Assembly (NCBI GenBank): GCA_965227515.1
Contig: CBDDFZ010000001.1
Coordinates: 3,584,001-3,648,000 of the forward strand
Direction of reading: 5' to 3'
DNA: 64,000 bases
Origin: Alphaproteobacteria bacterium
Lineage (GTDB): Bacteria; Pseudomonadota; Alphaproteobacteria; CALKHQ01
Shown here: positions 24,968 through 44,641 of the stretch, in pieces
Layout: each line of letters opens with the position of its first letter
Position numbering within the stretch: position 1 is the first letter of the stretch
Position numbers and translations under genes: made by a program
Notes under the pieces: model-generated
Told to the model about the DNA's origin: nothing
Databases searched by the model: none
What the model saw: only the letters and a program-made list of their open reading frames with translations

Positions 24968-25057
24968 ACAACTTACCGCCCGCAACAGAGGAATGCTTTC
25001 CTTTGCGCCCGGCGCGATGCGATGTTACGCGCAGCGGACTCAGAGTCGGAGGATACC

Positions 25058-25999: not shown

Positions 26000-28675
26000 A
26001 TGACCACTCTTGCGGCCGCGAGCGAGCGGTACATCAGCACGCCGCGGCCGTCGCTCCTGCTCTATCTCGCCATGGGCCTCGTCGCCGGGGCCGTCATTGC
26101 GTACCAGATTTTCATCATGCGGGTCTTCGCGGTGGGGAGCTGGACCCACTTCGGCTCGTTCGTCGTCGCCCTCGCCATGCTCGGCTTCGGCCTGGCCAGC
26201 GCGGTGATGGCGCTGTCGAAGGAGTTCTTCCAGCGCCGATGGCGCGGCGTGACGACCGTGTCGGTGGTCCTGTTCGGCCCGCTGATGGCCGGTTGCCAAA
26301 TCGTGGCGCAGCAGTACCCGTTCAACCCGATCTTCCTGGTCTCAGATCCGGCGCAGAGCTGGAACCTGGCAACCAACTTCGTTCTCTATTTCCTACCGTT
26401 CTTCGCCGCCGCCGTCTTCATCGGCACCGTGTTCCTGAAGACCTCCCAGGTCTTCGGACGGGTCTATTTCGCCGACCTGCTGGGTGCCGGGCTTGCCGGC
26501 CTGCTCATCCTCGGCGGCATGTTCCTGTTCCCGCCGGAACACCTGATCGTCGTGCCGCTGACGGTCTGGTTCATCGGCGCACTGTGCTGGCTGAAGTGGA
26601 TCGAAGGCCGCGCGAGCTTTGCATGCCTTATCGTTGCCGCCATTCTTTCGGCCGGGCTGCATGCCGTGCCGCCGCGTGCCGGCGACCTCGTCGATGCGCT
26701 CGGCCTGCGCGACGTGTTCCCGACCGCCGAGAATCTGCCGCACATCGCGGTGTCCGACTACAAGGGCGTTTCCTACGCGCGCAACTTCCCGGACTCCGAG
26801 CGCGTCTATTCGGACATCTCGCCGTTCGGCGACCTGCAAATCTACCAAAGCTCGTACCTGCATTTCGCGCCCGGCCTGTCCGACAACGCGGCTTTCAACA
26901 TCCCGGAGATGCCGTCGAACGCCTTCCTCGGCATGTACATCGACAGCGACGGGCCGAGCGGCATCATGCGCGAGCTGCCGGACGAACAGACGCTCTATTT
27001 CCGTTTCCTGCCGATGTACTACCCGTTCCTGGTCAAGGAGGATCCGTCGGTCTTCGTGGTCCAGTTCGGCGGCGGTATCTCCACGACCGTGGCGCTGCGC
27101 AGCGGTGCGTCGGACGTGACGGTGGCGGAGGCCAACCCTGCCGTGCTGAGCGTGATGGACGCGCCGCTTGTCCGCGACTTCACCGGCGACCTGCTGGGCG
27201 ACCCGCGCCTGACGGTGATCCCCTACGAGGGGCGCCTGTTCCTGGCCTCGACCGACCAGCGCTACGACATCATCGACTTGAGCCTCGCCGACTCCGTCGG
27301 GCTTTCCAGCCCTGGCGGCTTCGCCATCGCGGAGCGCTACGCCTACACCCGCGAGGCGATGAGCACGTATATGCGCGCGCTCGACGACGGGGGCATCCTG
27401 TCGGTCACGGTGTGGAACAAGGAGGAGCCGCCGAAGTCGGTGCTGCGCCTCTATGCCACCATGGCCGAGGCGGCGCGGGAGATCGATCCGGACAGCGTGG
27501 CGCAGTCGTTCTATGTCGCCGCCAACTACCTCTCCACCGCGACCGTGCTCTACAAGCGCGGCGGCTTCACGGACGAGGAGATCGCCATCCTCTCCGACAA
27601 CACCTACGCACTGTCGTTCGACGAGATATTCGCGCCGGGCATCGAGGTCGAGGGCGACGAGGCGCAGCTCCTGTCCGACTACCGGGCGCAGATCTTCGGC
27701 ATCGAAGATGGGGGCGATGGGTCGGGCGCCGATCCGATGGCGTGGATGGAAGACGACAGCGACCCGATGCTGGATCCCGTCTTCGAGGAGGGACCGGTGG
27801 TGATGCCGGCGACCTCGCTCGGCCGTTTCGCCTGGCAGGCGCTGGCCAACGACGACTGGGAGACCTTCTCGAGCACGTACGTTTTCGATGTGGACGGCCT
27901 GGACAACGACCGCCCCTATTTCGCGGCTTACGTGCGCCCGTCCGACCTGCCCGACACCCTCGACCGGCTGGAGCTGTTCCAGGACGACTGGGGCTATCTC
28001 GCGGTCTGGGGCACGCTGATCGTTGCCGGCATCGCGGCCCTGTTCCTGCTGTTGTTCCCGATCGTCTTCGGCTGGCGCGCCATCTTCAGCGCCTATCCCG
28101 GCAAGCTCGGCACCCTGCTCTACTTCGCCTGCCTCGGCTTCGGCTACATGCTGGTCGAGGTCGGGATGATCTCCAAGTTCATCCTGGCGCTGTCGACACC
28201 CACCGTCTCCGCCTCGGTGCTGATCACCGGCATGCTGGTCTTCTCCGGCCTCGGCAGCCTGCTGTCGGAGCGGTTCCTCGACCGCGCCAAGCAGGTGATG
28301 CCCTACGTCTTCGCGACCATCGGCGTGCTGCTGATCGGCTACAGCTTCGTCCTCGACTACGTGCTCGACTGGATCGGCACCTTCCCCTACGTCGTCCGCC
28401 TGGTGCTGTGCCTGGCCCTGATCGCGCCGCCGGCATTGCTGATGGGCTTCCCGCTTGCAACCGCCATGACCTGGCTCGGCCGGCTGGGCAAGGACCATCT
28501 GTTCATCTGGGCCTGGGGCATCAACGGCAGCTTCTCGGTCATCGGCTCGGCGGCGATCCCGGTGCTGGCGGTCAGCTTCGGCCTGACCTCGGTGATCCAG
28601 ATCGCCGGCATCGCCTACCTCATCGCCCTGCCCGCCTTCGTAGCGGTGTTGCTGCCGCTGCGCCGCCCGGCATGA
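26000..28675 (+). CDS. Large polytopic membrane protein with central spermidine-synthase/SAM-methyltransferase-like domain
   Basis: About 7 N-terminal TMs (YFADLLGAG), soluble domain VFVVQFGGG...VAEANP...YDIIDLS...YTREAM, C-terminal TMs (WAWGINGSFSV). Confidence 0.8.
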   Translation: MTTLAAASERYISTPRPSLLLYLAMGLVAGAVIAYQIFIMRVFAVGSWTHFGSFVVALAMLGFGLASAVMALSKEFFQRRWRGVTTVSVVLFGPLMAGCQIVAQQYPFNPIFLVSDPAQSWNLATNFVLYFLPFFAAAVFIGTVFLKTSQVFGRVYFADLLGAGLAGLLILGGMFLFPPEHLIVVPLTVWFIGALCWLKWIEGRASFACLIVAAILSAGLHAVPPRAGDLVDALGLRDVFPTAENLPHIAVSDYKGVSYARNFPDSERVYSDISPFGDLQIYQSSYLHFAPGLSDNAAFNIPEMPSNAFLGMYIDSDGPSGIMRELPDEQTLYFRFLPMYYPFLVKEDPSVFVVQFGGGISTTVALRSGASDVTVAEANPAVLSVMDAPLVRDFTGDLLGDPRLTVIPYEGRLFLASTDQRYDIIDLSLADSVGLSSPGGFAIAERYAYTREAMSTYMRALDDGGILSVTVWNKEEPPKSVLRLYATMAEAAREIDPDSVAQSFYVAANYLSTATVLYKRGGFTDEEIAILSDNTYALSFDEIFAPGIEVEGDEAQLLSDYRAQIFGIEDGGDGSGADPMAWMEDDSDPMLDPVFEEGPVVMPATSLGRFAWQALANDDWETFSSTYVFDVDGLDNDRPYFAAYVRPSDLPDTLDRLELFQDDWGYLAVWGTLIVAGIAALFLLLFPIVFGWRAIFSAYPGKLGTLLYFACLGFGYMLVEVGMISKFILALSTPTVSASVLITGMLVFSGLGSLLSERFLDRAKQVMPYVFATIGVLLIGYSFVLDYVLDWIGTFPYVVRLVLCLALIAPPALLMGFPLATAMTWLGRLGKDHLFIWAWGINGSFSVIGSAAIPVLAVSFGLTSVIQIAGIAYLIALPAFVAVLLPLRRPA

Positions 28676-29625
28676 GGGTGCGCGCAGCGCTGGCCTGCGC
28701 TGCCATGCTGTCCATCACCGCCGCCGATGGGGAGGCCCGGCCCGTGGCCCAAAGCCTGACCGAAATCGTCCCGTTCGACACCTACGCCTTCCCGTACGAC
28801 GGCATCAGCCCGATCACCGACCAGCCGTTCCTGGATGTGATCGAGGATGGGCGGCGCGGCCACACGTCGCCGCGCGCCGGCCTGTTGTGGGAGGACGAGC
28901 ACTATTTCGACCGCAGCACGCTGCTGCACATCCCCGCCGGCTTCGATCCCGACGCGCCGGCGGCCCTGGTCGTGTTCTTCCATGGCAACCAGACCATCCT
29001 GGAGCGCGATGTCGTTGGCCGCCAGCGGGTGCCGGCCCAGCTCGAGGCATCGGGCCTGAACGCGGTGCTGGCGGCACCGCAGCTTGCCTATGACGCGCCC
29101 GATTCCAGCGCCGGCGGCTTCTGGCGGCCGCGCGCGTTCCAGCAATGGCTGAGCGAGGCGTCGGCCCGGCTGGCCGGCATGCTTGGCGACCACGACCTGT
29201 CGTCGCGCATCGACGATCTGCCGATCGTGCTGGTCGCCTACAGCGGCGGCTACAACCCGGCGGCCTATGCGTTGTCGGTCGGCGGCGCGCGCGGGCGCGT
29301 CTGCGGCACGATCCTGCTCGACGGCCCCTATGACGACGAGGAAGCCTTCGTCGACTGGATCGCGCGCCGTGGCGACGGCTTCTTCATCAGCGCCCACTCG
29401 AAGTCCGCCTCGGAAAGCAACGAGGAACTGCGCACCCTGTTGACGGCGCGCGGCATTCCCTTCCAACAGGTCGCGCGCGACCCCCATCCGGCGCCGGGCG
29501 CGGTGACTTTCCTGGACGTCGGCGAGGATGTGCCGCACGAGGATTTCGTGACCCAGGCCTGGCGCCCCAATCCTCTGCAATGGTTCCTGAGCCAGCTTGC
29601 GGATCGGGAGCTCTGCGCCGGATAG
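28672..29625 (+). CDS. Exported alpha/beta-hydrolase-fold protein
   Basis: From MRVRAALA (ATGA overlap); signal-like N-terminus; VVFFHG, AYSGG nucleophile elbow, LLDGPY, late His. Confidence 0.72.
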   Translation: MRVRAALACAAMLSITAADGEARPVAQSLTEIVPFDTYAFPYDGISPITDQPFLDVIEDGRRGHTSPRAGLLWEDEHYFDRSTLLHIPAGFDPDAPAALVVFFHGNQTILERDVVGRQRVPAQLEASGLNAVLAAPQLAYDAPDSSAGGFWRPRAFQQWLSEASARLAGMLGDHDLSSRIDDLPIVLVAYSGGYNPAAYALSVGGARGRVCGTILLDGPYDDEEAFVDWIARRGDGFFISAHSKSASESNEELRTLLTARGIPFQQVARDPHPAPGAVTFLDVGEDVPHEDFVTQAWRPNPLQWFLSQLADRELCAG

Positions 29626-29789: not shown

Positions 29790-31232
29790 ATGGCCGATTC
29801 CAAGCCCGCCGCCCAATCGCCCGATTACGTCGAGCGCTTCGAGGATGCCATCGAGCGCAACCGGCCGCGCATCGCCGACGCCAAGGCGGCGCTGGAGAAG
29901 GCGGGCGTGAAGTACGTGATGGCGTGCTGGATCGACCTGCACGGCCTGCCCAAGACCAAGCCGGTGCCGATGGCGGAGTTCGAGACGGTCTGCCTGGGCA
30001 AGGGGCCGCAGTTCGCCGTTCATTCGGTCTCGTTCGTGCCGGAGCTGTCGCCCGCGGATTCCGACCAGATCGTCGTGCCGGACCTGGACGCGGTCTATGT
30101 CTGCCCGTGGGACACCAGCATGGCGATGGTGTTCTCCGACCTCTACTGGGAGGGCGCGCCCTACAATGTGTGCCCGCGCCAGGCCTTGCGCCGCGCCATG
30201 CGCGATGCCCGTCAGGCCGGGTATGTCGGCTATGCCGGGGTCGAGCCCGAGTTCATCGTGATGCGCCACGACGAGGCCGGCCAGCCGGTGAAGGCGTTCG
30301 ACGACGATCCGCCGGAGGGCGTGCGCCCGCGCCGCCAGGCCTTTGGCTACGACGTGGAATACTCCATCGATTCCATGCCGTTCCTGAAGGACATGATCGA
30401 CATCCTGGGCGGGCTGGGCTGGGACCTGCGCGACGTGGTTGCCGAGGGCGCCTATTCCCAGTTCGAGCTCGATTTCGGTTACACGAACTTGTTGCAGATG
30501 GCCGACCGGCTGGCTTTCCTGCGCATCGTGCTGAAGGAGGTGGCCAAGAAGCACGGCATGTTCGTCACCTTCATGCCGAAGCCGACTACCGGCGACTGGC
30601 GCTCCGGCGCGCACATCAATTTCTCGCTGCGCAGCACCGCCACCCCCGAGGACAATCTGTTCCAGCAGGGCGACGGCTGGTCGCCGCAGGCCGGCCACGC
30701 GGTCGGCGGGTTGATGGCCCATGCCGAGGCGCTGACCGCCATCACCTGCCCGACGGTCAACTCCTATAACGGGCTGGTGCCGCGCGTCGGCGGGTTCGAG
30801 GGCGGCACCGTCACCTGGGCGCCGACCAACATCACCTACGGTCACAATAACCGCTCCGCGCAGTTCCGCCTGCCGCAGAACCGGTTCTGCATCGAGAACC
30901 GGGCGGCGGACATGACCATGAACCCCTACCTGGCCTTCGCCATGACCCTGACATCGGCGATCGAGGGCATCGAGAAGGGCATCGATCCCGGTCCGCCGAC
31001 CGACCGCGACCTCTACGCGATGACACGGGAGGAGTTCGACGAACTCGGTATTCGGCGGCTGCCGCGCAACCTGTTGCAGGCGACGGAGGCACTGGCCACC
31101 GACCCTCTGGCCACGCGGGTGCTGGGGCCGACGATGCTGAAGTCCTACCTCGCCTACAAGAACGACGAGTGGGAGCGTTACCACCAGGCGGTGACCGACT
31201 GGGAGGTGCAGGAGTATCTGAGGCTCTACTGA
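29790..31232 (+). CDS. Glutamine synthetase family protein (gamma-glutamyl-amine ligase; GmaS/GlnT-like)
   Basis: IDLHGLPKTKPVP, GVEPEF, QFELDF, TFMPKP, SGAHINFS, NNRS, IENR, NPYL. Confidence 0.87.
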   Translation: MADSKPAAQSPDYVERFEDAIERNRPRIADAKAALEKAGVKYVMACWIDLHGLPKTKPVPMAEFETVCLGKGPQFAVHSVSFVPELSPADSDQIVVPDLDAVYVCPWDTSMAMVFSDLYWEGAPYNVCPRQALRRAMRDARQAGYVGYAGVEPEFIVMRHDEAGQPVKAFDDDPPEGVRPRRQAFGYDVEYSIDSMPFLKDMIDILGGLGWDLRDVVAEGAYSQFELDFGYTNLLQMADRLAFLRIVLKEVAKKHGMFVTFMPKPTTGDWRSGAHINFSLRSTATPEDNLFQQGDGWSPQAGHAVGGLMAHAEALTAITCPTVNSYNGLVPRVGGFEGGTVTWAPTNITYGHNNRSAQFRLPQNRFCIENRAADMTMNPYLAFAMTLTSAIEGIEKGIDPGPPTDRDLYAMTREEFDELGIRRLPRNLLQATEALATDPLATRVLGPTMLKSYLAYKNDEWERYHQAVTDWEVQEYLRLY

Positions 31233-32251
31233 TGGCCACCGCACCGGACTGCGAGGTCTTCGACCTCGGCGACGTGACGCTGCTGTCGGGCGAGGTGCTG
31301 CGCGGCGCGCGGCTGGCCTACAAGACCTATGGCGCGCTGGCGCCGGACGGCGGCAATGTGGTGGTGCTGCCGACCTTCTACACCGGCAGCCACATGCGCA
31401 ACGAAGGCTTCTTCGGCACCGGGCGCGCCATCGATCCGGCCCGCCACTTCATCGTCTCGATCAATATGTTCGGCAACGGCATCTCGTCGTCGCCGAGCAA
31501 CACGCCGGCCCCGCAGGACAGTCCGCGCTTCCCGCTGGTGACGTTGTGGGACAACATCGCCTGCCAGCACCGGCTGCTGACCGAGCGCCTGGGTGTGGAA
31601 CGCATCGCGCTCGTCGCCGGCTGGTCGATGGCCGGCTGCCAGGCCTATCAGTGGGGCGCGCAATACCCGGATATGGTCGACGCCATCCTGCCGTTCTGCG
31701 CTTCGGCCCGCACCTCGCCGCACAATTGGGTGTTCCTGGAGGGCGTGAAGGCGGCACTGTGCGCGGACCAGGGCTGGAAGGGCGGCGACTACGCTTCGCC
31801 ACCGGTCGCCGGGCTGAAGGCATTCGCGCGCGTCTATGCCGGCTGGGCCTATTCGCAGACCTTCTATCGCGAGGGGCTCTTCCGCCAGCTCGGCTTCGCG
31901 ACGCCGGAAGACCTGCTGGTCGACTGGGAGGACGACCACGCCACGAACTGGGATGCCAACGACCTGCTGGCCAAGCTCGCGACCTGGCAGGCCGGCGATA
32001 TCAGTGCCAATCCGCTTTATGGCGGCGATTTCGAAAAGGCCCTGGGGGCGATCACCGCGCGTGCGATCCTGATGCCGTCGACCACCGACCTCTACTTCCC
32101 GCCTGATGACAATGCCATCGAGGCGCGGCACATGCCCAACGCCGAGTTCCGTCCGTACGCGTCCGACTGGGGCCATTGCGCCGCCAGCCCGGGCAACGAC
32201 CCCGGCTTCACCGCCGCCCTTGAGGCCAATTTGCGCGAGTTGTTGGGATAG
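31232..32251 (+). CDS. MetX-like alpha/beta hydrolase (homoserine O-acetyltransferase family)
   Basis: LAYKTYG, FGNGISSSPSN, GWSMAG nucleophile, DLYFPP, WGH; TGATG coupling to the GS gene. Confidence 0.85.
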   Translation: MATAPDCEVFDLGDVTLLSGEVLRGARLAYKTYGALAPDGGNVVVLPTFYTGSHMRNEGFFGTGRAIDPARHFIVSINMFGNGISSSPSNTPAPQDSPRFPLVTLWDNIACQHRLLTERLGVERIALVAGWSMAGCQAYQWGAQYPDMVDAILPFCASARTSPHNWVFLEGVKAALCADQGWKGGDYASPPVAGLKAFARVYAGWAYSQTFYREGLFRQLGFATPEDLLVDWEDDHATNWDANDLLAKLATWQAGDISANPLYGGDFEKALGAITARAILMPSTTDLYFPPDDNAIEARHMPNAEFRPYASDWGHCAASPGNDPGFTAALEANLRELLG

Positions 32252-32287
32252 GTCCCAAAATCGTCGCCCTCGTCGCCCCACCCCACT

Positions 32288-32443
32288 CGTCGTCCTCGCC
32301 CTTGTGGCGAGGACCCATGGCGGTGCCGGTCCCGATGCGCGAGTTGAAGGTCTCTACCGGCGTTGCCGGACGCGTGCAGCCCTCTGGAACCGATCCCGCA
32401 TGTCGCCCAGGAATGGGTCCTCGCCACAAGGGCGAGGACGACG
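32288..32443. repeat. REP/MITE-like element, copy 2 (perfect 31-bp inverted arms)
   Basis: cgtcgtcctcgcccttgtggcgaggacccat (32288-318) and atgggtcctcgccacaagggcgaggacgacg (32413-43), between convergent genes. Confidence 0.85.
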
Positions 32444-32449
32444 AAGGAG

Positions 32450-32489
32450 TGGATTGCCGCGTCGCGCTAACGCGCTCCTCGCAATGACG
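32450..32489. repeat. Second REP-type half element
   Basis: tggattgccgcgtcgcgctaacgcgctcctcgcaatgacg resembles common alphaproteobacterial intergenic repeats (from recall). Confidence 0.55.
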
Positions 32490-32504
32490 GCGGGAGAGGC
32501 CGCC

Positions 32505-33539
32505 CTACCCCGCGGGGCGCTTGATCGACTGGTCCACCAAGTCGCCGCGATGCTGCGCGATGGCCGCCATCAGCCGCAGCACCACGCACACCGCCAGCCG
32601 GCTGGTAACACCGCTGACATCGAATATCGGCGCCAGTTCCGACACCTCGATCACGCTCGGCCGGCCCCGCTTTCCGAGTGCTGAGGCGATGCGCATCATC
32701 TCGCGCGATTCCAGCCCGCCCGGCTCGGCCGACGTCACCCCCGGCGCCATTGACGCGTCCATGACGTTGAAGTTGAAACTGAGGTACTGCGCGTCCGTGC
32801 CATTCCAGGCCCGGTCCGCCGCCTCCGCCGCGCCGGCGTCGATGCCGTTGTCGATCAGCTCGAACATCGGATGGAAGCGGATGCCGCGCGCCTTGGCCAG
32901 GTCGACCCAGTCCTTCGGGTTCATCGAGTTGCGCGCGCCGATATGGCCGATATTCGCCGCCGCCAGGTTCGGCAGCTCGGAGATGCGGGCGAGCGCGCAT
33001 GTGCTGACGTCGGCCTGACCGGCCCAGTTGTCGGCCAGGTCCAGATTGGCGCCGAAATGGAGGTAGCCCATTTTCTTGTCGGCACCCAGATGATCCGACA
33101 GCGCCTTGGTCGCCGGGATCGAGATCGAGCGGTCGCCGCCGCAAACGATGGGCGTGATGCCGGCTTCCAGCACCTTCCGGACCGCGTCGTAAATGCGCTG
33201 CCGCGACAGGGTCGGGTTCACCTTCGGCATCGACACGTCGCCGCAGTCGACCGCCGCACCCTGCAGGTCGACCTGATATTCGAACCAGTAGGGGAAGTAT
33301 TCCTGGGAGGCGATGCGGAACTCTCGCGGCCCCTCCTCCGAGCCCGGCTTGCCGACATTGCCCTCGTCGAACGGCACGCCGACGAACGCGTACTCGACGC
33401 CGGCCTCCTTCAGCTTCTCGGTGTCCAGCGGCACGTGGTCGGCGCGCAGGAAGGTGAGTTGCGTCGGCGAGCGGTAGTTTTCGGCATCGTCGCCACCCAG
33501 CGGCGAGAAGATGTGGGCATAGGCCTTGGCGGGGTTCAT
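32505..33539 (-). CDS. Ureohydrolase-family non-catalytic subunit (MfmB/DmgB-like)
   Basis: Arginase fold (GVPFD, VDCGD, PGG..SRE) with degenerate metal ligands GGDRS, HFGANLD, SFNFNVMD; N-terminus MNPAKAYAHIFSPLGGD recalls MfmB. Confidence 0.85.
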   Translation of the reverse strand: MNPAKAYAHIFSPLGGDDAENYRSPTQLTFLRADHVPLDTEKLKEAGVEYAFVGVPFDEGNVGKPGSEEGPREFRIASQEYFPYWFEYQVDLQGAAVDCGDVSMPKVNPTLSRQRIYDAVRKVLEAGITPIVCGGDRSISIPATKALSDHLGADKKMGYLHFGANLDLADNWAGQADVSTCALARISELPNLAAANIGHIGARNSMNPKDWVDLAKARGIRFHPMFELIDNGIDAGAAEAADRAWNGTDAQYLSFNFNVMDASMAPGVTSAEPGGLESREMMRIASALGKRGRPSVIEVSELAPIFDVSGVTSRLAVCVVLRLMAAIAQHRGDLVDQSIKRPAG

Positions 33540-33556
33540 GACGTTTCCTTAGATAT

Positions 33557-34615
33557 TCAGGCCGTCTGGCCGGCGGCGCGCAGGGTGGCGGCCCGGCTGC
33601 CGAGATAGTGGTAGACCATGCAGGCGACGAGCTTGATGCTCATCTGGCTGACGTCGAACATCGGGCACAGCTCGGAGATTTCGAGCACATCGGCGCCATA
33701 GGTGCCGGCGATGCGGGCAAGCTGGATCGCCTCGCGCGGCTTGATGCCGAAGCACTCCGGCGCCGTCGTGCCGGGCATGCAGCTCGCGTCCAGAGAATCC
33801 GTGTCCCACGAGCAATAGACCGCGTCGGTACCGTTCCAGGCGATGTCGAAGATCTCGCGGGTGCAGACGTCGACCCCGCGCTCCGCCGCCTCCATCATCG
33901 GGATGATGCGGACCTGATTGTCGACGAAGAAGTCGTGCCAGTCCTTCGGGTTCAGCCCGTTGCGCGAGCCCATGTGGGCCATGTTGGCGCCGTCGCAGTT
34001 CGGCAGGTCGAACGCGCGCGCCGGGCCGGAGCAGTTGGTGTTGCGGATGCCGCCCCAGTCGGGCGCGGAGTCCAGGTGGCAGTCGATGTGCAGGTAGCCG
34101 ATCTTGCCGTCGCGGTGGAAATCGGACAGCGCGTGGGCGGCTGGGATCGGCGCCGAGTGGTCGCCACCGCAGAATATCACCTTGGCACCGCCCTCCAGGC
34201 ACTCGGTGATGTACTGGTGAATGTACTCGTGGCTGCGGTCGTTGTTGCCGGGCACGATCGGCACGTCGCCGCAGTCGACCGGCCGGAAGAACGAGACCAG
34301 GTCGACATCGTACTCGAACATATAGGGGAAGTACTGGGTGGTCGCCTCACGCAGGCCGGCCGGCCCCTGCGAGGTGCCTGCGCGCACCATCTGGCCCTGA
34401 TCCCACGGCACGCCCAGGAAGCAGATCTTCGCCCCCATCTCGCGGATCGCATGGCGGTCGGGCGGGCAATAGGGCGCGTTCATGAAGGTGGCGATGCCGG
34501 CCGACTTGAAGGTGCCGTTGTGCAGCTTGGGCGAGTTGATGTGATCGTCGGCGCCGCGCTGCTGCTGCGGCCCCTGGTGCTGGTGCGGCACGAACTCCCA
34601 GGTGCCAGTGCTCAT
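33557..34615 (-). CDS. Ni-dependent ureohydrolase catalytic subunit (metformin/dimethylguanidine hydrolase MfmA/DmgA-like)
   Basis: Intact ligands GGDHS, DCHLD, WDTDSLD; SPKLHNG..K..GIATFM.APYCPPDRH recalls MfmA; adjacent hypAB. Confidence 0.88.
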   Translation of the reverse strand: MSTGTWEFVPHQHQGPQQQRGADDHINSPKLHNGTFKSAGIATFMNAPYCPPDRHAIREMGAKICFLGVPWDQGQMVRAGTSQGPAGLREATTQYFPYMFEYDVDLVSFFRPVDCGDVPIVPGNNDRSHEYIHQYITECLEGGAKVIFCGGDHSAPIPAAHALSDFHRDGKIGYLHIDCHLDSAPDWGGIRNTNCSGPARAFDLPNCDGANMAHMGSRNGLNPKDWHDFFVDNQVRIIPMMEAAERGVDVCTREIFDIAWNGTDAVYCSWDTDSLDASCMPGTTAPECFGIKPREAIQLARIAGTYGADVLEISELCPMFDVSQMSIKLVACMVYHYLGSRAATLRAAGQTA

Positions 34616-34622
34616 GACGTGC

Positions 34623-35018
34623 TCATGGGCGGTGTTCCTCGAACGCGGGTTGGATGGGTCGGGCCGGCGATGCCGGCGCGCCGAACTCGATGCCGGTGAC
34701 CTGCATCTCGCGGCCGGTCACCACCTCGTTCGCCGGCATGCCGCAGGTGCCGCAGCGGAAGGTGTAGCGCGCGGTCGGCCGGCGGGCGGCGTTGCATGTG
34801 CGGCACTGCACGGTCAGTGGCACTTCCTCGATCTCCAGGGCGGCGCCGTCGCACACCGTGCCGCGTGCCGCACGATCGAAGCAGAACAGGAGCGCGCGCC
34901 GGAAGCCCGACAGCTCGCCGAGCCGGATACGGATGGCGGCGACGTGCGTCTCGCCCTGGCTGGCGGCGTGTGCGGCCACCATCTCGATCAAATTGCGGGC
35001 AATGGTCAGCTCATGCAT
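34623..35018 (-). CDS. hypA: Nickel metallochaperone HypA
   Basis: N-terminal MHE, GELSG, CRTC and CGTC, GREM. Confidence 0.93.
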
Positions 35019-35826
35019 GGGCGTGATGCGGTGTTGGCGACGCTTGGACCGCATCGCGGGTGCGGGCGAGCCAGTCGACCCAGCCCGCCATGCCCTCGCC
35101 GGTCCGCGCCGAGAGCTCAAGCACCTCGATGTCGGGGTTCAATGCGCGGGCATGCGCGATGCAGCGCGCCACATCGAAATCGACATGGGGCAGCAGGTCG
35201 ATCTTGTTCAGCACCATCAGGTCGGCGGCCATGAACATATCGGGGTACTTGGCCGGCTTGTCGTCGCCCTCGGTCACCGACAGCACGGCGACCTTGGCGT
35301 GCTCGCCGAGGTCGAAGGTGGCGGGGCAGACCAGGTTGCCGACATTCTCGATGAACAGCACGTCGCCGGCGCCCAAGGTCAGCCCGTCCATGGCATGGCC
35401 GATCATGTGCGCGTCCAGATGGCAGACCCGGCCAGTGTTGATCTGCACCGCCGGCACGCCGGCCGCCCGGATGCGTGCGGCGTCGTTCTCGGTCGCCTGG
35501 TCGCCCTCGATGACGGCCATCGACATGCGCCCGTCAAGCGCCGCGGCCGTGGCGGTGAGCAGGCTGGTCTTGCCGGCGCCGGGCGACGACACGAGGTTGA
35601 GGGCGAGCACGCCCAACCCGGCAAACCGTACGCGGTTGGCTTCGGCGTAACCGTCGTTCTTGGCCAGGATGTCGAGCTCGACCGCATGCCAGTCGCGCTG
35701 GCCGTGATTGTGCTGGTGGCCGTGCGCGTGGTCGTGGTCTTGCGCGTGGCTGTGATGATGGTGGCGATGGCCATCCTTGCCACCGATGGTGACCTCGCCC
35801 TCGCCGCAACCGCATACGCCACACAT
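35011..35826 (-). CDS. hypB: Nickel-incorporation GTPase HypB
   Basis: MCGVCGC, His-rich stretch, [25 protein letters not shown]. Confidence 0.95.
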
Positions 35827-35837
35827 GATCGGGAATC

Positions 35838-36752
35838 CTATTCGGCCGCCTTCGCCTGCCACGACGACAGTTCCGGGATCGTGCCCTCGTAGTATGGCAG
35901 TTCGTCCACCCGCGGCGTCCACGATCCGTCGTCGATGCAGGCCTGCACGTGGGTCGCGATCTCTTCCATGGTCGCGAACCACACGCCGCCCTTGTTCTGC
36001 ATCTCCTCGATCATCTTGGCGACCCGCTCGCAGCGCGCCAGCCGGCCGGAGACGAACGGATGCCACACCGTGACCCACAGGCCGTTGTGGCGGTACATCG
36101 CGTCGAACTCGGACATGAAGACGTTCATCGCCTCGTCGGGCGACTTGATCGGCATCATGTAGTGCATGTCGGGCGCGTGGGTGTAGTGCGGCCAGTCGTC
36201 CATCGCCCACTGGCTGGGCAGCTCGATCACCTGGCCCTTCTTGGTCTTCAGGATGTAAGGCACGTCGTCGCCCATCAGGCTGGCGTCATAGATCATGCCC
36301 TGGTCGATCATGTAGTCGAGCGAGTATTTGGAGAAGTTGTAGAGCGGCGCGCGCCAGCCGCGCGGCTTCTTGCCGGTCATCTTGCGGATCGTTTCGATCT
36401 GGCGCTCGAACCAGTAGAGCTCCTCCTCGGCGCTGAGCTGGTTCGGGTTCTCGTGCAGATAGCCGTGGGCGGCGATCTCGTGCCCGCCCTCCAGGATGAT
36501 GTCGACCAGGTGCGGATAGCGCTCCATGCACCACGCCGGATAGAAGAACGTCTGCTTGATGTCGTAGCGCTTGTACATCTCCACGATGCGCGGGATCGCG
36601 ACCTCGTCGTACTTCAGCCACGACATGGTCGACAGCATGGTCGGCGCGCGGTCGCCGTGCTCCAGGTGCAGGATGCTGTCGGTGTCGATGTCGAAGGTGA
36701 TGGCGCAGGCCACGCGGGCGCCGTTCGGCCAGGGCACGGGATTGCTGATCAT
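35838..36752 (-). CDS. Polysaccharide deacetylase (CE4; PuuE/HpPgdA-like) hydrolase
   Basis: [54 protein letters not shown]. Confidence 0.88.
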
Positions 36753-36785
36753 GGTCGTGGTCCCCTCATCCGCTATGAGAACGGT

Positions 36786-38060
36786 TCACTTTATGGCAAT
36801 GCCGTCGGCCTGCACCAGCAGGCCTTCGCGCGGCAGGCCGTAGACACGCACCGGCGTCATCGCCGGCCGGGCATTCGGCGCCACCTGGCGCCACACATCG
36901 CACACGGCGTAGAAGGCGTCGGCCACGTCGGGCGCGCCCTCCTCACCGACCAGGAACAGGTTGAGCTTGACCAGGTCGTCCAGCGACGCGCCGCCCTCGG
37001 CCAGCACCCGCGCCACCCGGTCGAACACGATGCGCGCCTGTCCGGCAACGTCGCCCGGCGCCAGCACATCGCCGCCGCCGCTGAGCGCAACCTGCCCGCC
37101 GACATAGATCTCCTCGCCCGCCGCAAGCCCGTCCGACGCGAAGGCCGGCTGGTAGCGCCCGCCCAGGTCCGCGGCGGACAGCACGTGGCGCGCCGGGTCG
37201 ATCACCGCCATGGCGTCGATCTCCAGCACCAGGCCGGGATAGAGCAGGTCGACCCCGAAGGCGGAGAACACCGGCCCCGGTGCTTTGAAAACCTCGCCCG
37301 ACACGTCCAGGATCGATGGCAGATAGCCGGTCGCCGGATCGCCGCCCTGCGATTGCTTGAAGCAGATCTTCACCCGCACGACGTCGTCCAGCGTGCCGCC
37401 GGCATCGACGACCACCTGCTCGATGAAGCGATAGATATTGCGGGTCTGGGTCACCACGTCGTCGACCGCCACCGACCGGCCCTTCTCGTCGGCCGAGATC
37501 TGGCCGCCGACGAAGATCTGGTTGCCGGTGCGCCACCCCTGGGAAAGCGGCACCGCGATGCTCCAGTCCCAGCTTCCGTCGGGCATGATGCGCTGGCGGG
37601 TGCGCCGTGCCCCGCCGCGCAGCGCTACCCCTTCGATCTGGATCAACTGGCCGGCATAGGGCATGCCCTTGATCCGCACCGCGGTCGCCGCCGGGCCGGG
37701 ATCGGGGAAGTACTCCAGACGGACGGCGGTCATGTCCTCCCAGTACTTGGTGGCGTCGGCATCGTCGCCCTCGAAGACGTAGTAGGTGTTCAGGCGCGCC
37801 AGATCGGCCATCTCCAGGCCCGACTGCGCCAGGGTCGCCTTCATGTTCTCGAACACATTGCGGGTCTGGGCGGCGATGTCGCCGGCATCTTTCACCGAAC
37901 CGTCGGCATTCAGGGTCTGCTGCCCGCTGACGAAGACCTGGTCGCCGATCTCCACCGACTGCGCGAACGGCACGGGCCGCGCCCAAGCCCAAACGCCGCC
38001 ATTGTCGGCGTTGGCGGTTCGCGGCGTCGCATCGCCGGGGTGCGGGACAGGCTGGCTCAT
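36786..38060 (-). CDS. Triple-domain Rid (YjgF/YER057c/UK114) family protein
   Basis: Three repeats: VFVSGQ/IFVGGQ/IYVGGQ ... IQIEGVA/LEIDAMA/VQADGIA. Confidence 0.85.
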   Translation of the reverse strand: MSQPVPHPGDATPRTANADNGGVWAWARPVPFAQSVEIGDQVFVSGQQTLNADGSVKDAGDIAAQTRNVFENMKATLAQSGLEMADLARLNTYYVFEGDDADATKYWEDMTAVRLEYFPDPGPAATAVRIKGMPYAGQLIQIEGVALRGGARRTRQRIMPDGSWDWSIAVPLSQGWRTGNQIFVGGQISADEKGRSVAVDDVVTQTRNIYRFIEQVVVDAGGTLDDVVRVKICFKQSQGGDPATGYLPSILDVSGEVFKAPGPVFSAFGVDLLYPGLVLEIDAMAVIDPARHVLSAADLGGRYQPAFASDGLAAGEEIYVGGQVALSGGGDVLAPGDVAGQARIVFDRVARVLAEGGASLDDLVKLNLFLVGEEGAPDVADAFYAVCDVWRQVAPNARPAMTPVRVYGLPREGLLVQADGIAIK

Positions 38061-38109
38061 TGTGTCGGGTCCGATTCAGGCACGTCAGATCAAGCGGATA
38101 TGGGCAGGG

Positions 38110-39096
38110 TCAGCCGGCAACGGCCAGGCCGCGGTGATACTGCTCCAGGGCAGCGATCGCCTCCTCGGCCGCGCCGTCGCTTTCCGGCAGAGCACCGCAG
38201 TAGGTCTGGATGGCCTTCGCGGCCAGCGGCTTCCATTTCTCGATCCAGTCGCGCATCGCGGCACGGCTCGCCTCGTTGCCGGCGGCGAACTCCACCAGTG
38301 CCGCGCTCCACCGGCGCGACCGCTCGGCATCGCGCAACTGGTTGTCGGCCAGCATCGCCAGCAGCGGGTCGCGGAAGCGCCGCGCCGTCTTGCCGAGCTG
38401 GCGCAGGCATTCGTCGGCGGCCGGCTTGGCGACCACGTTCAGCGCAATGAAGTTTTCGCCCCAGTCGTAGGTGGCCAGCGTGCGCTCGATCAGTTCGCGC
38501 AGGCCCTGCCACGCCGGGTGCTCTTCCCAGTGCCGGCGCTCGTCCTTGCCGAAGCCGCGGTCGGGATGCGCGATCCGAAGCTCGCGGGTGCGATAGGCCA
38601 TGCGCGACAGCCAGCGGAACTCGTCGCCCTCCTGGAACCCGGCGGCCGCCGTGATGGTGCTGGCGGGCGCAATCTGCAGGATGTAGGCGGCGCCCATCTG
38701 CAACGCCATCTGCAGGTAGCGGCGCGGCGTGTAGAGGGATTCCAGCACGCCCAGCCAGTCGTCGGCCAACTCGCTGTCGTAGCCCTGCTCGTTGTGCTCG
38801 TCGAGCAGGCCGTCGATGTATTCCTCCTGGCCGTCCTGGGTGCGGGTATAGACACGGTAGACTAGCTCGTCCGGGTCGCGGAACCCCTCCCAGTCGTCAT
38901 GCTGCAGCGGGCTCTCGGCGACGTTCTTCTGGTACCAGGTATTCATATCCAGCAACGGCGCCGGCGACAGCTCATAGGCCTGGTCGGGGTAGCGGTTGCG
39001 GGTCTGCAGGTTGGTGGTGACGATCTCGTACTCGCTGGGACGGCGGCGGTTCTTCGCCAGCCCGCTCCAGGTCTTCATGCCGGTCAGTTCAACCAT
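38110..39096 (-). CDS. Soluble di-iron monooxygenase hydroxylase beta subunit (TmoE/IsoE-like)
   Basis: KTWS.LA..RRRPSEYEIVT, WEGFRDPDELVYR.Y...QDGQE, YDWGE.F..LN. Confidence 0.92.
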   Translation of the reverse strand: MVELTGMKTWSGLAKNRRRPSEYEIVTTNLQTRNRYPDQAYELSPAPLLDMNTWYQKNVAESPLQHDDWEGFRDPDELVYRVYTRTQDGQEEYIDGLLDEHNEQGYDSELADDWLGVLESLYTPRRYLQMALQMGAAYILQIAPASTITAAAGFQEGDEFRWLSRMAYRTRELRIAHPDRGFGKDERRHWEEHPAWQGLRELIERTLATYDWGENFIALNVVAKPAADECLRQLGKTARRFRDPLLAMLADNQLRDAERSRRWSAALVEFAAGNEASRAAMRDWIEKWKPLAAKAIQTYCGALPESDGAAEEAIAALEQYHRGLAVAG

Positions 39097-39126
39097 TTCC
39101 CCACCCTTCCCGCTTGCGTCCGAAAC

Positions 39127-39426
39127 CTACTTCGCCAAGAAGCGCATCGCTTCGTTGTCGACGCGGATGAACCCCTCGAACGAGGGCATGAACACTTCGA
39201 TGTCGCCACGCGTCACCGCACGGCCCAGCATGTCGCCGACCGTGTCGAAGCGCACCACGCACTCGCCGCGCACCTTGATACGCAGGTAGGAGGCGTGCTC
39301 CTCCACCTGGATCTCGCGGCCCTGGTTGTCTTCCTCGATCGCCTCGACCACGGCGTCGGCCATGTCGCCGGTGCGCATCACCGGGCCGACGAAGCGGTCC
39401 TCCTCAGCTCCAGTTCCGTCTGGCAT
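39127..39426 (-). CDS. Monooxygenase effector/coupling protein (MmoB/DmpM/TmoD family)
   Basis: VGPVMR.GD.ADAVVEAIEEDN, YLRI, MPSFEGFI. Confidence 0.9.
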   Translation of the reverse strand: MPDGTGAEEDRFVGPVMRTGDMADAVVEAIEEDNQGREIQVEEHASYLRIKVRGECVVRFDTVGDMLGRAVTRGDIEVFMPSFEGFIRVDNEAMRFLAK

Positions 39427-39465
39427 CGCCCCCTCCTCTCGCGGCCCGGCCGCCAACCGCCGCGT

Positions 39466-39804
39466 TCAGCCCACGCCGGCCGGTGTCAGCACCACCTTGA
39501 CCTCGCCGTCCTCGACCTTGACCGGATAGCTGGTCAGCGCCACGCCGGTCGGGTTCACGCCCTTGCCGGTCAGCACGTCGAACTCCCACATATGCGCCAG
39601 GCACGTCAGCACGCAGCCGTCCAAATCGCCCTCGGCCAGCGACTGGTCCTGGTGCGGGCAGCGCGGATGGAACGCGCGCACCTCACCGCCCGGCGCGTGC
39701 ACGATCAGCACGTCGGTGCCGGCGACCGTGAACAGCTCCATCTCGCCTTCCCAGATATCGTCCAGGCTGCAAACGGTCTGGTATTCCATGCCGGTCCCGC
39801 TCAA
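39466..39804 (-). CDS. Rieske [2Fe-2S] ferredoxin (TmoC-like)
   Basis: VCSLDDIWEGEM, CPHQ...CLAHMWEFD, GVNP. Confidence 0.92.
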   Translation of the reverse strand: MSGTGMEYQTVCSLDDIWEGEMELFTVAGTDVLIVHAPGGEVRAFHPRCPHQDQSLAEGDLDGCVLTCLAHMWEFDVLTGKGVNPTGVALTSYPVKVEDGEVKVVLTPAGVG

Positions 39805-40061
39805 GCTTCCGGATAGATTTCGATGGCTTCCATCTCGGCCAGCCCGGCGCCGGACACGGTAGCATCGTCGGCCAGCGGCGCGTCGGCGCCCTGCACCTTC
39901 ACTTTCAGCCTGGTGCCATCCGGGAACGGCGCCACCAGCACGCTGGCCACCTGATCCAGCGCCTTCTCAACCACGGTCGTCATGGGGTCGCCATCGTCGA
40001 CCACCAGCACCTTGTAGCCGTAGTCGCCGTGCAGGTAGCAGGCGAGCGGGAAGTCTGCCAT
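39801..40061 (-). CDS. Monooxygenase gamma subunit (TmoB-like)
   Basis: MADFPL...GDY..KVLVVD..D.M; 86 aa; position between alpha and Rieske genes. Confidence 0.8.
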   Translation of the reverse strand: MADFPLACYLHGDYGYKVLVVDDGDPMTTVVEKALDQVASVLVAPFPDGTRLKVKVQGADAPLADDATVSGAGLAEMEAIEIYPEA

Positions 40062-40072
40062 GACGCCGTCCG

Positions 40073-41572: not shown

Positions 41573-41601
41573 GGCCCCATCTCCTCCACTGGCAGTGCGG
41601 T

Positions 41602-41868
41602 CCACGAATTTCGTGGCGAACCTGGCCAGTGAAGCACGAATTCCTCCGCACTGCCAAGCGCGCTTGTGAGAAATTCGCGATATTGCCCAAAAATGCCGCA
41701 CAATTCGTGGCTGGCGTGCAGGCCATGCCGCATTCGCAGGCAGTCAGGCGATCCGGCTTGTGCCAGTTCGAGGGTTGACAAGGACTTCATTGACGAAATT
41801 CGTGCGGATGAATACCGTGGGTACCGCAAACGCTCAGCAGTTCAGCTAGTTTGCATCGAAATTCGTGA
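41602..41868. promoter_or_regulatory. Phased array of putative Lrp/AsnC operator sites (CACGAA-W-TTCGTG) in the divergent promoter region
   Basis: Sites centred at 41609 (perfect palindrome), 41641, 41673, 41703, 41798, 41861; half-site at 41766; spacing ~31-32 bp or multiples. Confidence 0.72.
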
Positions 41869-41923
41869 CCGCGCCGGCCTTCGCGCTGGACATGGTCCGC
41901 GGCCGCGGACGTTGGGGAACGCG

Positions 41924-42685: not shown

Positions 42686-42756
42686 GGAGCCGGCCGATGG
42701 GGGGCGGGACATCGAAGCATGCAGGAACAGCGGCGCCGGCGGTCGCCGCACCACAT

Positions 42757-42773
42757 GCGGCAAAGCTCTTGCA
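42757..42773 (+). promoter_or_regulatory. Possible sigma54 (-24/-12) promoter for the ABC transporter
   Basis: GCGGCAAAGCTCTTGCA: GG-N10-GC with TTGC, about 43 bp upstream of ATG 42816. Confidence 0.4.
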
Positions 42774-42815
42774 TGGGACCGCCCCATGGCTGGGCCGCGA
42801 GACGAGTGGTGACCG

Positions 42816-43715: not shown

Positions 43716-43730
43716 GGCTGGAGGCGGGGG

Positions 43731-44564: not shown

Positions 44565-44641
44565 GCCGGCGGCCAGGCAGGCGGCCGGGCCGGACAACCA
44601 GTGGGCCGATGGGGGTCCACGCAACCTCGGGGAGATCGGGT

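Follow-up and report, generated by a model that had tools for sequence, protein, structure and literature searches.

A probable nickel-dependent ureohydrolase pair of the dimethylguanidine-hydrolase type encoded at the end of an operon with a diiron monooxygenase

A stretch of 64,000 nt of alphaproteobacterial DNA (hereafter the window) encodes on its minus strand, between positions 32505 and 35826, hypB and hypA together with a catalytic ureohydrolase (A) and a paralogue with a degenerate metal site (B), as read from the translated ORFs. We consider it likely that A and B constitute a nickel-dependent ureohydrolase of the DmgH/MefH type acting on a small N,N-disubstituted guanidine and inactive on metformin, with import and capture of the amine product provided by neighbouring genes. 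Since a wider family of non-metformin enzymes is already in print, the pair is not novel in itself; judged by its sequence it is a further member of the DmgH family. The novelty lies in the operon, which joins the pair to a diiron monooxygenase, a protein of three fused RidA domains and a hydrolase of the polysaccharide-deacetylase (CE4) family. We found no paper in the literature describing a link between the monooxygenase module and a DmgH-type pair.

Such α/β pairs are described by Sinn et al. (2024) as Ni-dependent α2β4 dimethylguanidine hydrolases (DmgH), in which the α subunit is inactive without β, and activity requires β, nickel and co-expressed HypAB (PMC11399263).

The ureohydrolase pair and its nickel chaperones

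Subunit A (352 aa; 33557-34615, minus strand) and subunit B (344 aa; 32505-33539, minus strand) belong to the Pfam Arginase family (E = 5.4e-49 and 1.5e-53 respectively), and their genes are separated by 17 nt. In a PDB search A matched the A chains of metformin hydrolase (8x3g_A, 8snf_D and 8ryi) with E = 5.5e-178 to 1.1e-177 (8e-178 for 8snf_D), and B matched the subunit B chain 8ryi_C with E = 1.5e-158. At the level of sequence this is a likeness far beyond chance. On alignment with MfmA, A retains all six metal ligands (H153, D178, H180, D182, D271 and D273), and its translation contains the motifs GGDHS, IDCHLD, WDTDSLD and PGTTAPEC. The translation of B shows GGDRS, FGANLD and NFNVMD, with R, G, N, D, N and N at the ligand positions; five of the six are replaced and a single D is kept. 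The initial annotation had proposed an intact catalytic subunit paired with one that has lost its metal ligands, and every motif that it quoted is present in the translations.

The sequence identity of A is 69.1% with MfmA, 69.3% with the DmgH α subunit of A. niigataensis DSM 7050 (L067) and 76.3% with that of the characterised Hyphomicrobium DmgH (L049). The corresponding values for B are 64.0% (MfmB), 66% and 71%. Tassoulas et al. list Q81, N200, C201 and W232 as conserved only in close MfmA homologues, together with E321 (PMC10927577), and the equivalent residues of A (Q75, N194, C195, W226 and E315) are all kept in the alignment. The pair shares its fold and the active-site Q, N, C, W and E with MfmAB, MefH and MetCaCb (8SNF, 8RYI and 8X3G), and by homology their heteromeric architecture and dependence on HypAB would be expected of it as well. 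The order hypB-hypA-A-B is common to the window, MfmAB and DmgH, in keeping with the earlier suggestion of an MfmAB-type architecture related to dimethylguanidine hydrolases. Unlike MfmAB and MefH, to which the identities are 69% and 64%, the active-site loop has Thr-Thr in place of Asn-Ser.

The next-best PDB relative of A is GdmH (Synechocystis Sll1077, 7ESR/7OI1; E = 1.5e-42), which is likewise Ni-dependent with HypA/HypB-type activation, but is the product of one gene and lacks a degenerate partner. Five related loci (L019, L045, L048, L064 and L078) carry a GdmH-like gene of 397-409 aa as a separate paralogue, and the window does not.

The hypA gene (34623-35018, minus strand) ends 7 nt before A, and hypB (35011-35826, minus strand) overlaps hypA by 8 nt. 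The ORF of hypA extends to 35120, but HypA homology begins only at the ATG at 35018. This nickel metallochaperone scores 95.5 bits with Pfam HypA and 85.5 bits with NCBIfam TIGR00100, slightly below the cut-off of 88.1. The His-rich nickel GTPase HypB matches Pfam CobW/HypB, and scores 290.6 bits with TIGR00073 against a cut-off of 121.2. The adjacent hypA and hypB genes noted earlier are confirmed.

Beside the homology and residue states established here, we infer a quaternary structure and a dependence on nickel. The 64-69% identity to the crystallised complex suggests an α2β4 assembly, in which A would carry the dinickel site and B would serve as a catalytically dead scaffold, with nickel probably loaded by HypB and HypA.

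Neighbouring genes in the window and in the family

The pair closes an operon of 11 tightly packed minus-strand genes running from 41566 to 32505, in which genes either overlap or are spaced by 7-49 nt. Divergent from it on the plus strand are an AsnC/Lrp-type regulator (41666-42685; Pfam HTH_AsnC-type and AsnC_trans_reg) and a NitT/TauT-type ABC importer (42816-45691; Pfam and NCBIfam) comprising permease (42816-43715), ATPase (43731-44564) and NMT1/SsuA-like binding protein (about 44600-45691). Two plus-strand genes converge on the end of the operon, encoding a glutamine-synthetase-like amine ligase (29790-31232) and a MetX-like α/β hydrolase (31229-32251). The ligase scores 363 bits with the NCBIfam type III glutamine synthetase model, below the cut-off of 469.6. 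Its best PDB match and closest solved relative is glutamate--methylamine ligase (gamma-glutamylmethylamide synthetase, 9QUR; E = 2e-75), and it would putatively capture a methylated amine product.

We compared the window with 80 related genome loci. The order is α then β in 77 of the 80. All 82 α copies, from 81 sources, keep the His, DxHxD and first Asp of DxD; 78 have all six ligands and the remaining four read D-N at DxD. The two Asp ligands are lost from all 76 β rows. The usual partners of the pair are hypAB (hypA adjoining in 66 and hypB in 62 of the 81 sources), the NitT/TauT-type importer (ATPase in 53, permease in 43, binding protein in 38), the AsnC regulator (38), parts of urease (20-29) and the glutamate-methylamine-ligase-like enzyme (29). 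The MetX-like hydrolase is found in 10 of 81. Across 13 loci the permease and the ATPase of the importer show 64-79% identity, and the Hyphomicrobium DmgH locus also has a transporter of this type.

A Pfam scan of 68 ORFs of the window, i.e. every called gene plus long ORFs in the gaps (sets of 15, 31, 1 and 12, and 9 re-checks), revealed no member of the urease, hydrogenase or transposase families, as the initial annotation had stated. The setting is chromosomal, free of transposases and informative, while the pMET-2 MfmAB locus of P. mendocina has IS3 and Tn3 transposases on its flanks. Like the Hyphomicrobium and Aminobacter DmgH (PMC11399263), the window has a tandem α/β pair after hypB-hypA, with the α dinickel site intact and β degenerate. 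Unlike the DmgH loci it has neither urease nor HupE nearby, and its pair ends an 11-gene operon with monooxygenase, triple-RidA and CE4 genes; the Aminobacter DmgH lies in TetR/CodB/HupE surroundings.

Some observations count against a DmgH-type assignment. The 64 kb window lacks urease, though urease subunit genes adjoin the pair in 29 of 81 sources, and A is just 69% identical to the crystallised enzyme.

The diiron monooxygenase module and its link to the pair

The first gene of the operon (40073-41566, minus strand, as are all that follow) encodes a diiron monooxygenase α subunit with a C-terminal YHS domain. Next come a TmoB-like small subunit (39801-40061; Pfam TmoB, E = 5.3e-14), a Rieske-type ferredoxin (39466-39804; Pfam Rieske, E = 3.8e-17), an effector protein of the MmoB/DmpM family (39127-39456; Pfam MmoB_DmpM, E = 3.6e-23) and the β subunit (38110-39096; Pfam Phenol_Hydrox, E = 1.1e-60), in the tmoABCDE order of ToMO (TouA-F) and T4MO (TmoA-F). 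The triple-RidA protein (424 aa; 36786-38060) matches Pfam Ribonuc_L-PSP in three stretches and an NCBIfam Rid family, and the CE4 hydrolase (304 aa; 35838-36752; Pfam Polysacc_deac_1; best PDB match 3rxz, E = 6.9e-53) is encoded 11 nt upstream of hypB. The residues E104, E134, H137, E197, E231 and H234, which we take to be the diiron ligands of the TMO family, are present in the α subunits of the window and seven other loci (numbering by alignment with 1t0q).

The complete module lies beside the pair in nine of the 80 loci in addition to the window, with the CE4 hydrolase 82-87% identical in these nine; the triple-RidA protein is found in 9 of 81 sources. In the other 71 loci the complete module is missing, and the pair can evidently do without it. 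We put forward, tentatively and as less likely than not, that the 11-gene operon specifies an oxidative pathway, so far undescribed, for guanidines that are methylated or cyclic, in which the monooxygenase with its remodelled pocket, the triple-RidA protein and the CE4 hydrolase would act in series with the DmgH-type hydrolase, either making its substrate out of a natural precursor or consuming its amine.

It is possible instead, if on the unlikely side, that the module is a functionally unrelated aromatic or alkene hydroxylase, placed beside the pair only by shared horizontal transfer. The α subunit matches ToMO TouA (1t0q) with E = 1e-185 and T4MO TmoA with E = 4e-176, and most loci of the family lack the module. 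Moreover, alpha- and gammaproteobacterial MAGs share 80-87% identity in the module proteins, suggesting that the block is mobile. Against this, module and pair are juxtaposed in separate clades of the α-subunit tree, and the juxtaposition takes at least three forms. The two run in the same direction in the window and converge in 9 of the 12 rows belonging to one clade, while in L064 they are found after urease. The close spacing of the genes in the window also argues against it. The module has RidA, CE4 and nickel-ureohydrolase genes as its partners in place of the genes of aromatic ring cleavage that would be expected from ToMO and T4MO; the Pfam scan of neighbouring window ORFs gave no catechol or ring-cleavage genes near the operon.

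An oxidative route could run in either direction. In the first, which we think rather unlikely in this specific form, the pair would act first, giving urea and a methylated amine that the monooxygenase oxidises, for example by N-demethylation of dimethylamine. RidA would hydrolyse the resulting imine or carbinolamine, CE4 would remove a formyl or acyl amide, and methylamine would pass to the glutamine-synthetase-like ligase. RidA proteins hydrolyse imines, and the relationship of the ligase to glutamate--methylamine ligase and its frequent position by the pair are consistent with such a flow, as are the packing of the 11 genes (spaced by 49 nt or less, or overlapping) and the recurrence of the module beside the pair in differing orientations. 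However, we know of no diiron monooxygenase that demethylates dimethylamine, and the pocket of the α subunit is largely hydrophobic. The Arenicellales loci with the module have no ligase within 10 kb. In addition, tblastn with the L034 reductase as query gave no match to a TmoF-type NADH:ferredoxin oxidoreductase in the window at E = 1e-3; this reductase is present in only L034 and L016.

In the second, which we judge unlikely, monooxygenase, CE4 and RidA would start from a larger or cyclic guanidine, such as a methylated 2-aminoimidazole or creatinine-like ring or a trialkylguanidine, and produce from it the N,N-disubstituted guanidine used by the pair, thereby supplying the natural source that the DmgH substrate lacks. 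The monooxygenase genes head the operon and the pair ends it. The CE4 hydrolase is a distant relative of the ring-opening allantoinase PuuE (E = 1.1e-16), and the gene combination parallels the Rut pathway of pyrimidine ring opening, in which a monooxygenase, an amidohydrolase, a RidA-family protein and an α/β hydrolase are combined; the triple-RidA protein has a RutC-like match of E = 2.4e-28, below the cut-off. The α pocket differs from that of ToMO at ten positions (I100V, A101C, E103A, A106H, A107S, F175A, F176L, M180A, M181H and F196L), with two new histidines, and is identical in all eight sequences, the window and seven related loci. Beside the pair, L002 and L005 carry another set of oxidases (GMC oxidoreductase and luciferase-like monooxygenase) together with a CE4 paralogue. 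Yet NitT/TauT importers mostly transport small solutes, the complete module is missing from most loci, and this ordering of the steps rests on gene context.

Substrate specificity of the pair

Beside the gene order and conserved neighbours established here, we infer what the substrate is and how the pathway flows. A small N,N-disubstituted guanidine would probably enter via the divergently encoded ABC transporter, controlled by the AsnC regulator, and be hydrolysed to urea and an amine, which the neighbouring ligase-like enzyme probably takes up. Among relatives whose specificity residues are the same, hydrolysis has been shown only for 1,1-dimethylguanidine, which enzymes of the DmgH type split into urea and dimethylamine.

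In the numbering of Sinn et al. the metformin signature is Asn288-Ser289-Ala290 plus Cys184. The window has C179 and T283-T284-A285 at these positions, matching MefH at two of the four (the C184 and A290 equivalents), while N288 and S289 are replaced by Thr and Thr. The MfmA motif given in the initial annotation, PGNSAPEC, is indeed printed in the 8snf alignment and present in the MfmA gene of pMET-2 (L081), where A reads PGTTAPEC. Its suggestion of a non-metformin specificity is upheld by the α subunit of L049, which has the same Cys and Thr-Thr-Ala as A. L049 is the Hyphomicrobium SMAG_U6089 operon expressed by Sinn et al., who report hydrolysis of dimethylguanidine and not of metformin (PMC11399263). 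By this comparison the window pair is probably no metformin hydrolase. That it should nevertheless be a genuine one is very improbable: A is 69% identical to MfmA and shares half of the signature, but L049 is identical to it at all four positions, and in the α-subunit tree MfmA is nested within the Aminobacter clade, distant from window A.

Cys184 and Ala290 of MfmA are the majority state of the family. The Aminobacter DmgH, unlike the window, has Ser and Ser-Thr-Ser at these positions, which is the derived state. Thr-Thr-Ala is likewise the majority state across the family and not peculiar to the window.

We can give almost no credence to the view that A is a common Mn-dependent agmatinase accompanied by a duplicate in decay, with HypAB serving another nickel enzyme, since although agmatinase TIGR01230 is the best named NCBIfam model, A and B reach just 111.0 and 118.9 bits, far under the cut-off of 174.3, the window has no hydrogenase or urease, HypAB adjoin the pair in most sources, and a β subunit 58-82% identical over 77 of 80 loci contradicts a decaying pseudogene.

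For the SMAG_U6089 enzyme the figure legend reports metformin and dimethylguanidine alone, each at 2 mM (PMC11399263), so other substrates may be preferred. The kinetics given for DmgH are poor, with KM = 2.6 mM in HEPES or 57 mM in Tris and kcat = 0.9 per s, and both papers from the Hartig laboratory (one being PMC11399263) state that the natural source of dimethylguanidine is not known. A poor catalyst acting on a compound lacking a known natural source suggests that the true substrate may differ.

Metformin hydrolase is a clear case of a new enzyme activity that has arisen in response to a synthetic drug. DmgH is its proposed precursor, and the window presents an enzyme of the precursor type on a chromosome, in surroundings that are undisturbed. 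A recurrent and unexplained partner of the pair, the diiron monooxygenase together with RidA and CE4, may point to the natural substrate. If an oxidative route exists, working it out would reveal which natural substrate metformin hydrolase arose from. The operon link provides a testable lead to the elusive natural substrate of DmgH-type enzymes.

Identity and active sites of the ureohydrolase pair

The four genes hypB (35011-35826), hypA (34623-35018), A (33557-34615, 352 aa) and B (32505-33539, 344 aa) all lie on the minus strand. HypB is His-rich and matches the Pfam CobW/HypB family, with an NCBIfam HypB score of 290.6 bits (cut-off 121.2) confirming the assignment. The hypA product matches Pfam HypA, and both A and B belong to the Pfam Arginase family. 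The closest PDB relatives of A are the metformin hydrolase A chains 8x3g, 8snf and 8ryi (E = 5.5e-178 to 1.1e-177), followed by the guanidine hydrolase GdmH (E = 1.5e-42), and B matches the metformin hydrolase B chain (E = 1.5e-158). We took the MfmAB metformin hydrolase genes of the P. mendocina plasmid pMET-2 (locus L081) for comparison. BLAST gives 69.1% identity between A and MfmA (68.5% by global alignment), and B is 64.0% identical to MfmB. The kinship with MfmAB proposed in the initial annotation is thus borne out, and all the motifs quoted there are present in the translated ORFs.

A had been described as keeping an intact metal site and B as having lost it. All six ligands are indeed found in A (H153, D178, H180, D182, D271 and D273), while the corresponding positions of B are R, G, N, D, N and N, so that five of six have been replaced. 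Sinn et al. (2024, PMC11399263) report that such gene pairs encode Ni-dependent α2β4 enzymes, that the alpha subunit is inactive by itself and that co-expression of HypAB is required. We infer the same stoichiometry and metal for the window enzyme. A also has the residue set (Q75, N194, C195, W226 and E315) that Tassoulas et al. (PMC10927577) describe as conserved in close MfmA homologues only.

Sinn et al. also describe dimethylguanidine hydrolase (DmgH), a "more widely distributed" relative of metformin hydrolase (MefH), which converts 1,1-dimethylguanidine into urea and dimethylamine and does not hydrolyse metformin. The enzyme is slow, with KM = 2.6 mM in HEPES and kcat = 0.9 per s. It was tested from two sources, A. 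niigataensis DSM 7050 and a synthetic operon from "Hyphomicrobium sp. isolate SMAG_U6089" (PMC11399263); our genome scan recovered both, as L067 and L049 respectively. The change of substrate from dimethylguanidine to metformin was tied to four positions, 184 and 288-290 in their numbering. These are Ser and Ser-Thr-Ser in DmgH of Aminobacter, and Cys and Asn-Ser-Ala in MefH (PMC11399263). In window A they are Cys and Thr-Thr-Ala (positions 179 and 283-285 in its own numbering), exactly as in the alpha subunit of L049. The L049 subunits are 76.3% (alpha) and 71% (beta) identical to A and B. Since this assayed relative has identical specificity residues, the best-supported prediction is that the window enzyme would hydrolyse dimethylguanidine and be inactive on metformin. 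This agrees with the non-metformin specificity suggested earlier from the sequence. A route from creatinine to methylguanidine was not preferred, since in the substrate screen of Sinn et al. (PMC11399263) methylguanidine was not turned over by MefH.

Divergence within the family

The genome scan with the alpha subunit as query gave 80 loci (L001-L080), mostly from metagenome-assembled genomes (MAGs) whose titles read Alpha- or Gammaproteobacteria. Each of the 82 alpha copies has DxHxD intact, together with the first His and the leading Asp of DxD, and 78 have all six ligands. The other four (L030, L037, L038 and L042) have D-N at the DxD metal motif, and their metal sites may be altered or inactive. 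The equivalents of D124 and D234 are missing in all 76 beta rows. The beta metal site has decayed to different degrees in different loci. Fifteen betas retain the first His (L017, L020, L021, L023, L024, L026, L032, L034, L051, L052, L054, L057, L064, L076 and L078), and L051, L052, L054, L057, L064, L076 and L078 have three of six ligands, comprising the first and second His and one DxD Asp. These seven loci are the deepest-branching rows of the alpha tree. The window beta retains just one of six.

The alpha tree was a quick IQ-TREE calculation on 89 rows with SH-aLRT support only, rooted on six GdmH-like or other paralogues whose long branches make the root uncertain. The window groups with L001 (89% identical) and further MAGs in a clade of 14 rows (support 98). 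MfmA is placed within the Aminobacter Ser/Ser-Thr-Ser clade (19 rows, support 99), an origin already proposed by Sinn et al. (PMC11399263). That clade is nested among Cys/Thr-Thr-Ala lineages, so MfmA, with Cys184 and Ala290, has the residues that the majority of the family has at these positions. On this tree, with its uncertain root, Aminobacter DmgH and its soil relatives show a derived state (Ser/Ala184 and Ser-Thr-Ser), and of the four 'tipping point' changes two seem to be reversions to an older one.

Alpha-type copies lacking an adjacent beta, hypA or hypB occur in L040 (4745-5797) and L041 (9323-10363), and each of these MAGs has a complete locus on a separate contig (L025 and L035). 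A separate arginase-family gene of 397-409 aa with a DRHxD motif is present in L019 (1484-2677), L045 (6519-7727), L048 (12155-13384), L064 (136-1359) and L078 (8808-10019), adjoining an NMT1-like binding protein in L019 and L064. Its product may be a guanidine hydrolase of the GdmH type, encoded in the same locus as the alpha/beta pair.

Neighbouring genes and a probable pathway

Neighbours were counted by clustering ORFs of at least 90 aa from the 80 loci plus window positions 22001-46000, giving 81 sources, with representatives named by Pfam. The counts, which are lower bounds because several loci are short contig ends, are highest for hypA (66/81) and hypB (62). They are followed by an ABC ATPase (53) and permease (43), the AsnC regulator and an NMT1/SsuA-like binding protein (38 each), the urease gamma-beta subunit, UreE and a GS-like ligase (29 each), UreF (28), UreG and UreD (20 each), TetR (19), the CE4 hydrolase (15), HupE (14), a CodB-like permease, a MetX-like hydrolase and the monooxygenase effector, Rieske and beta genes (10 each), the triple-RidA protein (9) and monooxygenase alpha (8).

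In the window the AsnC regulator and a NitT/TauT-type ABC importer are divergent from the operon. The permease and ATPase have 64-79% identity in 13 loci. The binding protein has only weak PDB matches to SsuA (E = 6e-5) and TauA (E = 1e-4), which give no clue to its ligand. Convergent with the operon end are the GS-like ligase, which among solved structures is closest to glutamate--methylamine ligase (9qur, E = 2e-75), and a MetX-like alpha/beta hydrolase (31229-32251, plus strand). The latter overlaps the ligase stop by 4 nt and passes the NCBIfam subfamily NF005757 'hypothetical protein' (446.6 bits, cut-off 332). This ligase-hydrolase pair recurs in L012, L051, L052, L054 and L078. Searches of the 64-kb window turned up no family of urease, hydrogenase or transposase; the initial annotation had likewise seen no hydrogenase or urease there and no transposase nearby. 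An Rfam scan of the entire window at gathering thresholds gave 0 matches, and hence no guanidine riboswitch.

It is probable that an imported guanidine is cleaved by a nickel A/B heteromer and the amine captured by the GS-like ligase. The ABC system would import a small N,N-disubstituted guanidine, HypB and HypA would load nickel into A, the heteromer would release urea and an amine, and the ligase would take up the amine.

Other genes lie further away. Hydantoinase/oxoprolinase A and B subunits (45791-49629, minus strand), convergent with the ABC binding-protein gene, are nearest to caprolactamase, with scores of 541.8 and 244 bits that do not reach the cut-off of 1000, and are found in 0 of the 80 loci. 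A protein like the N,N-dimethylformamidase beta subunit (54279-56465, plus strand; DMFA2_C, E = 1.2e-84) has relatives of 40-42% identity in L007 and L075, where they lie no more than 10 kb from the pair. After two tandem genes resembling PCMT-type protein-L-isoaspartate O-methyltransferases (24080-25942, plus strand) come a multi-pass membrane protein of 891 aa (26000-28675) and an ORF of 317 aa (28672-29625), neither of which matches a Pfam or NCBIfam family.

The monooxygenase-RidA-CE4 module

The hypB-hypA-A-B genes form the tail of an 11-gene same-strand block with gaps of −8 to 49 nt. The first gene encodes a diiron monooxygenase alpha subunit (40073-41566, minus strand), and is followed in order by a TmoB-like subunit, a Rieske ferredoxin, an effector and the beta subunit, then the triple-RidA protein (36786-38060) and, before hypB, the CE4 polysaccharide-deacetylase-family hydrolase (35838-36752), all on the same strand. 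ESM Atlas returned family names alone for the last two. A promoter and terminator scan of 31800-43000 gave 0 promoter-like sites and one terminator-like site against 4.6 expected from shuffles, and so does not inform the operon limits. The alpha subunit matches TouA of toluene/o-xylene monooxygenase (ToMO) with E = 1e-185 and has all six diiron ligands. It departs from ToMO at ten positions in or near the pocket (V100, C101, A103, H106, S107, A175, L176, A180, H181 and L196), and these residues are invariant in the window and the seven loci where the alpha ORF was recovered.

By tblastn all seven module genes lie beside the pair in 9 of the 80 loci (L016, L019, L020, L021, L023, L024, L026, L034 and L045), with 80-87% identity to the window for monooxygenase alpha and the CE4 hydrolase. 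In these nine the module is downstream of B on the opposite strand. In L064 monooxygenase alpha lies at the locus edge, preceded by hypA-A-B, the GS-like ligase and a complete urease cluster, and L041 has monooxygenase beta and effector genes further off. The window, a 12-row gammaproteobacterial clade (module in nine rows) and L064 are separate clades on the ureohydrolase alpha tree, so module and pair lie side by side in three or more arrangements. Only L034 and L016 have a TmoF-type reductase; the window has none. That the module is functionally unlinked to the pair is possible, and likelier than either of the linked roles considered below, though less likely than not.

Two loci carry a different oxidative set, non-homologous to the module, directly after the pair (L002 12166-17556, and L005), comprising a CE4 paralogue of 279 aa (32% identity with the window hydrolase), a GMC oxidoreductase and a luciferase-like monooxygenase. 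In the Arenicellales loci L020 (12136-13248), L023 and L026 an M20-family peptidase/amidohydrolase gene, 83-84% identical between them, lies between beta and the CE4 hydrolase; the window lacks it.

A linked module might process the released amine downstream, which we consider unlikely, or make the guanidine upstream out of a precursor that is larger or cyclic, which is about as unlikely. The natural source of dimethylguanidine is given as unknown by Sinn et al. 2024 (PMC11399263) and by a 2025 paper from the same laboratory (PMC12508155). As for the pair itself, that it is a true metformin hydrolase is very improbable given specificity residues equal to those of L049, and so is the reading of A as an ordinary agmatinase.

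In the literature from 2024 on, the names DmgH, dimethylguanidine hydrolase and MefH are used only in two Hartig-laboratory papers. Searches found no paper on a gene cluster of diiron monooxygenase, RidA and polysaccharide deacetylase, none among the matches listed on a soluble diiron monooxygenase with guanidine or urease, and nothing relevant on toluene monooxygenase in sponge symbionts or Arenicellales. At the operon level, no link of the pair to a diiron monooxygenase was found in the searchable literature. The pair belongs to a published family, and a 76%-identical relative has already been assayed. Rather than a new kind of system, the monooxygenase link provides a moderate lead on a question acknowledged to be open.
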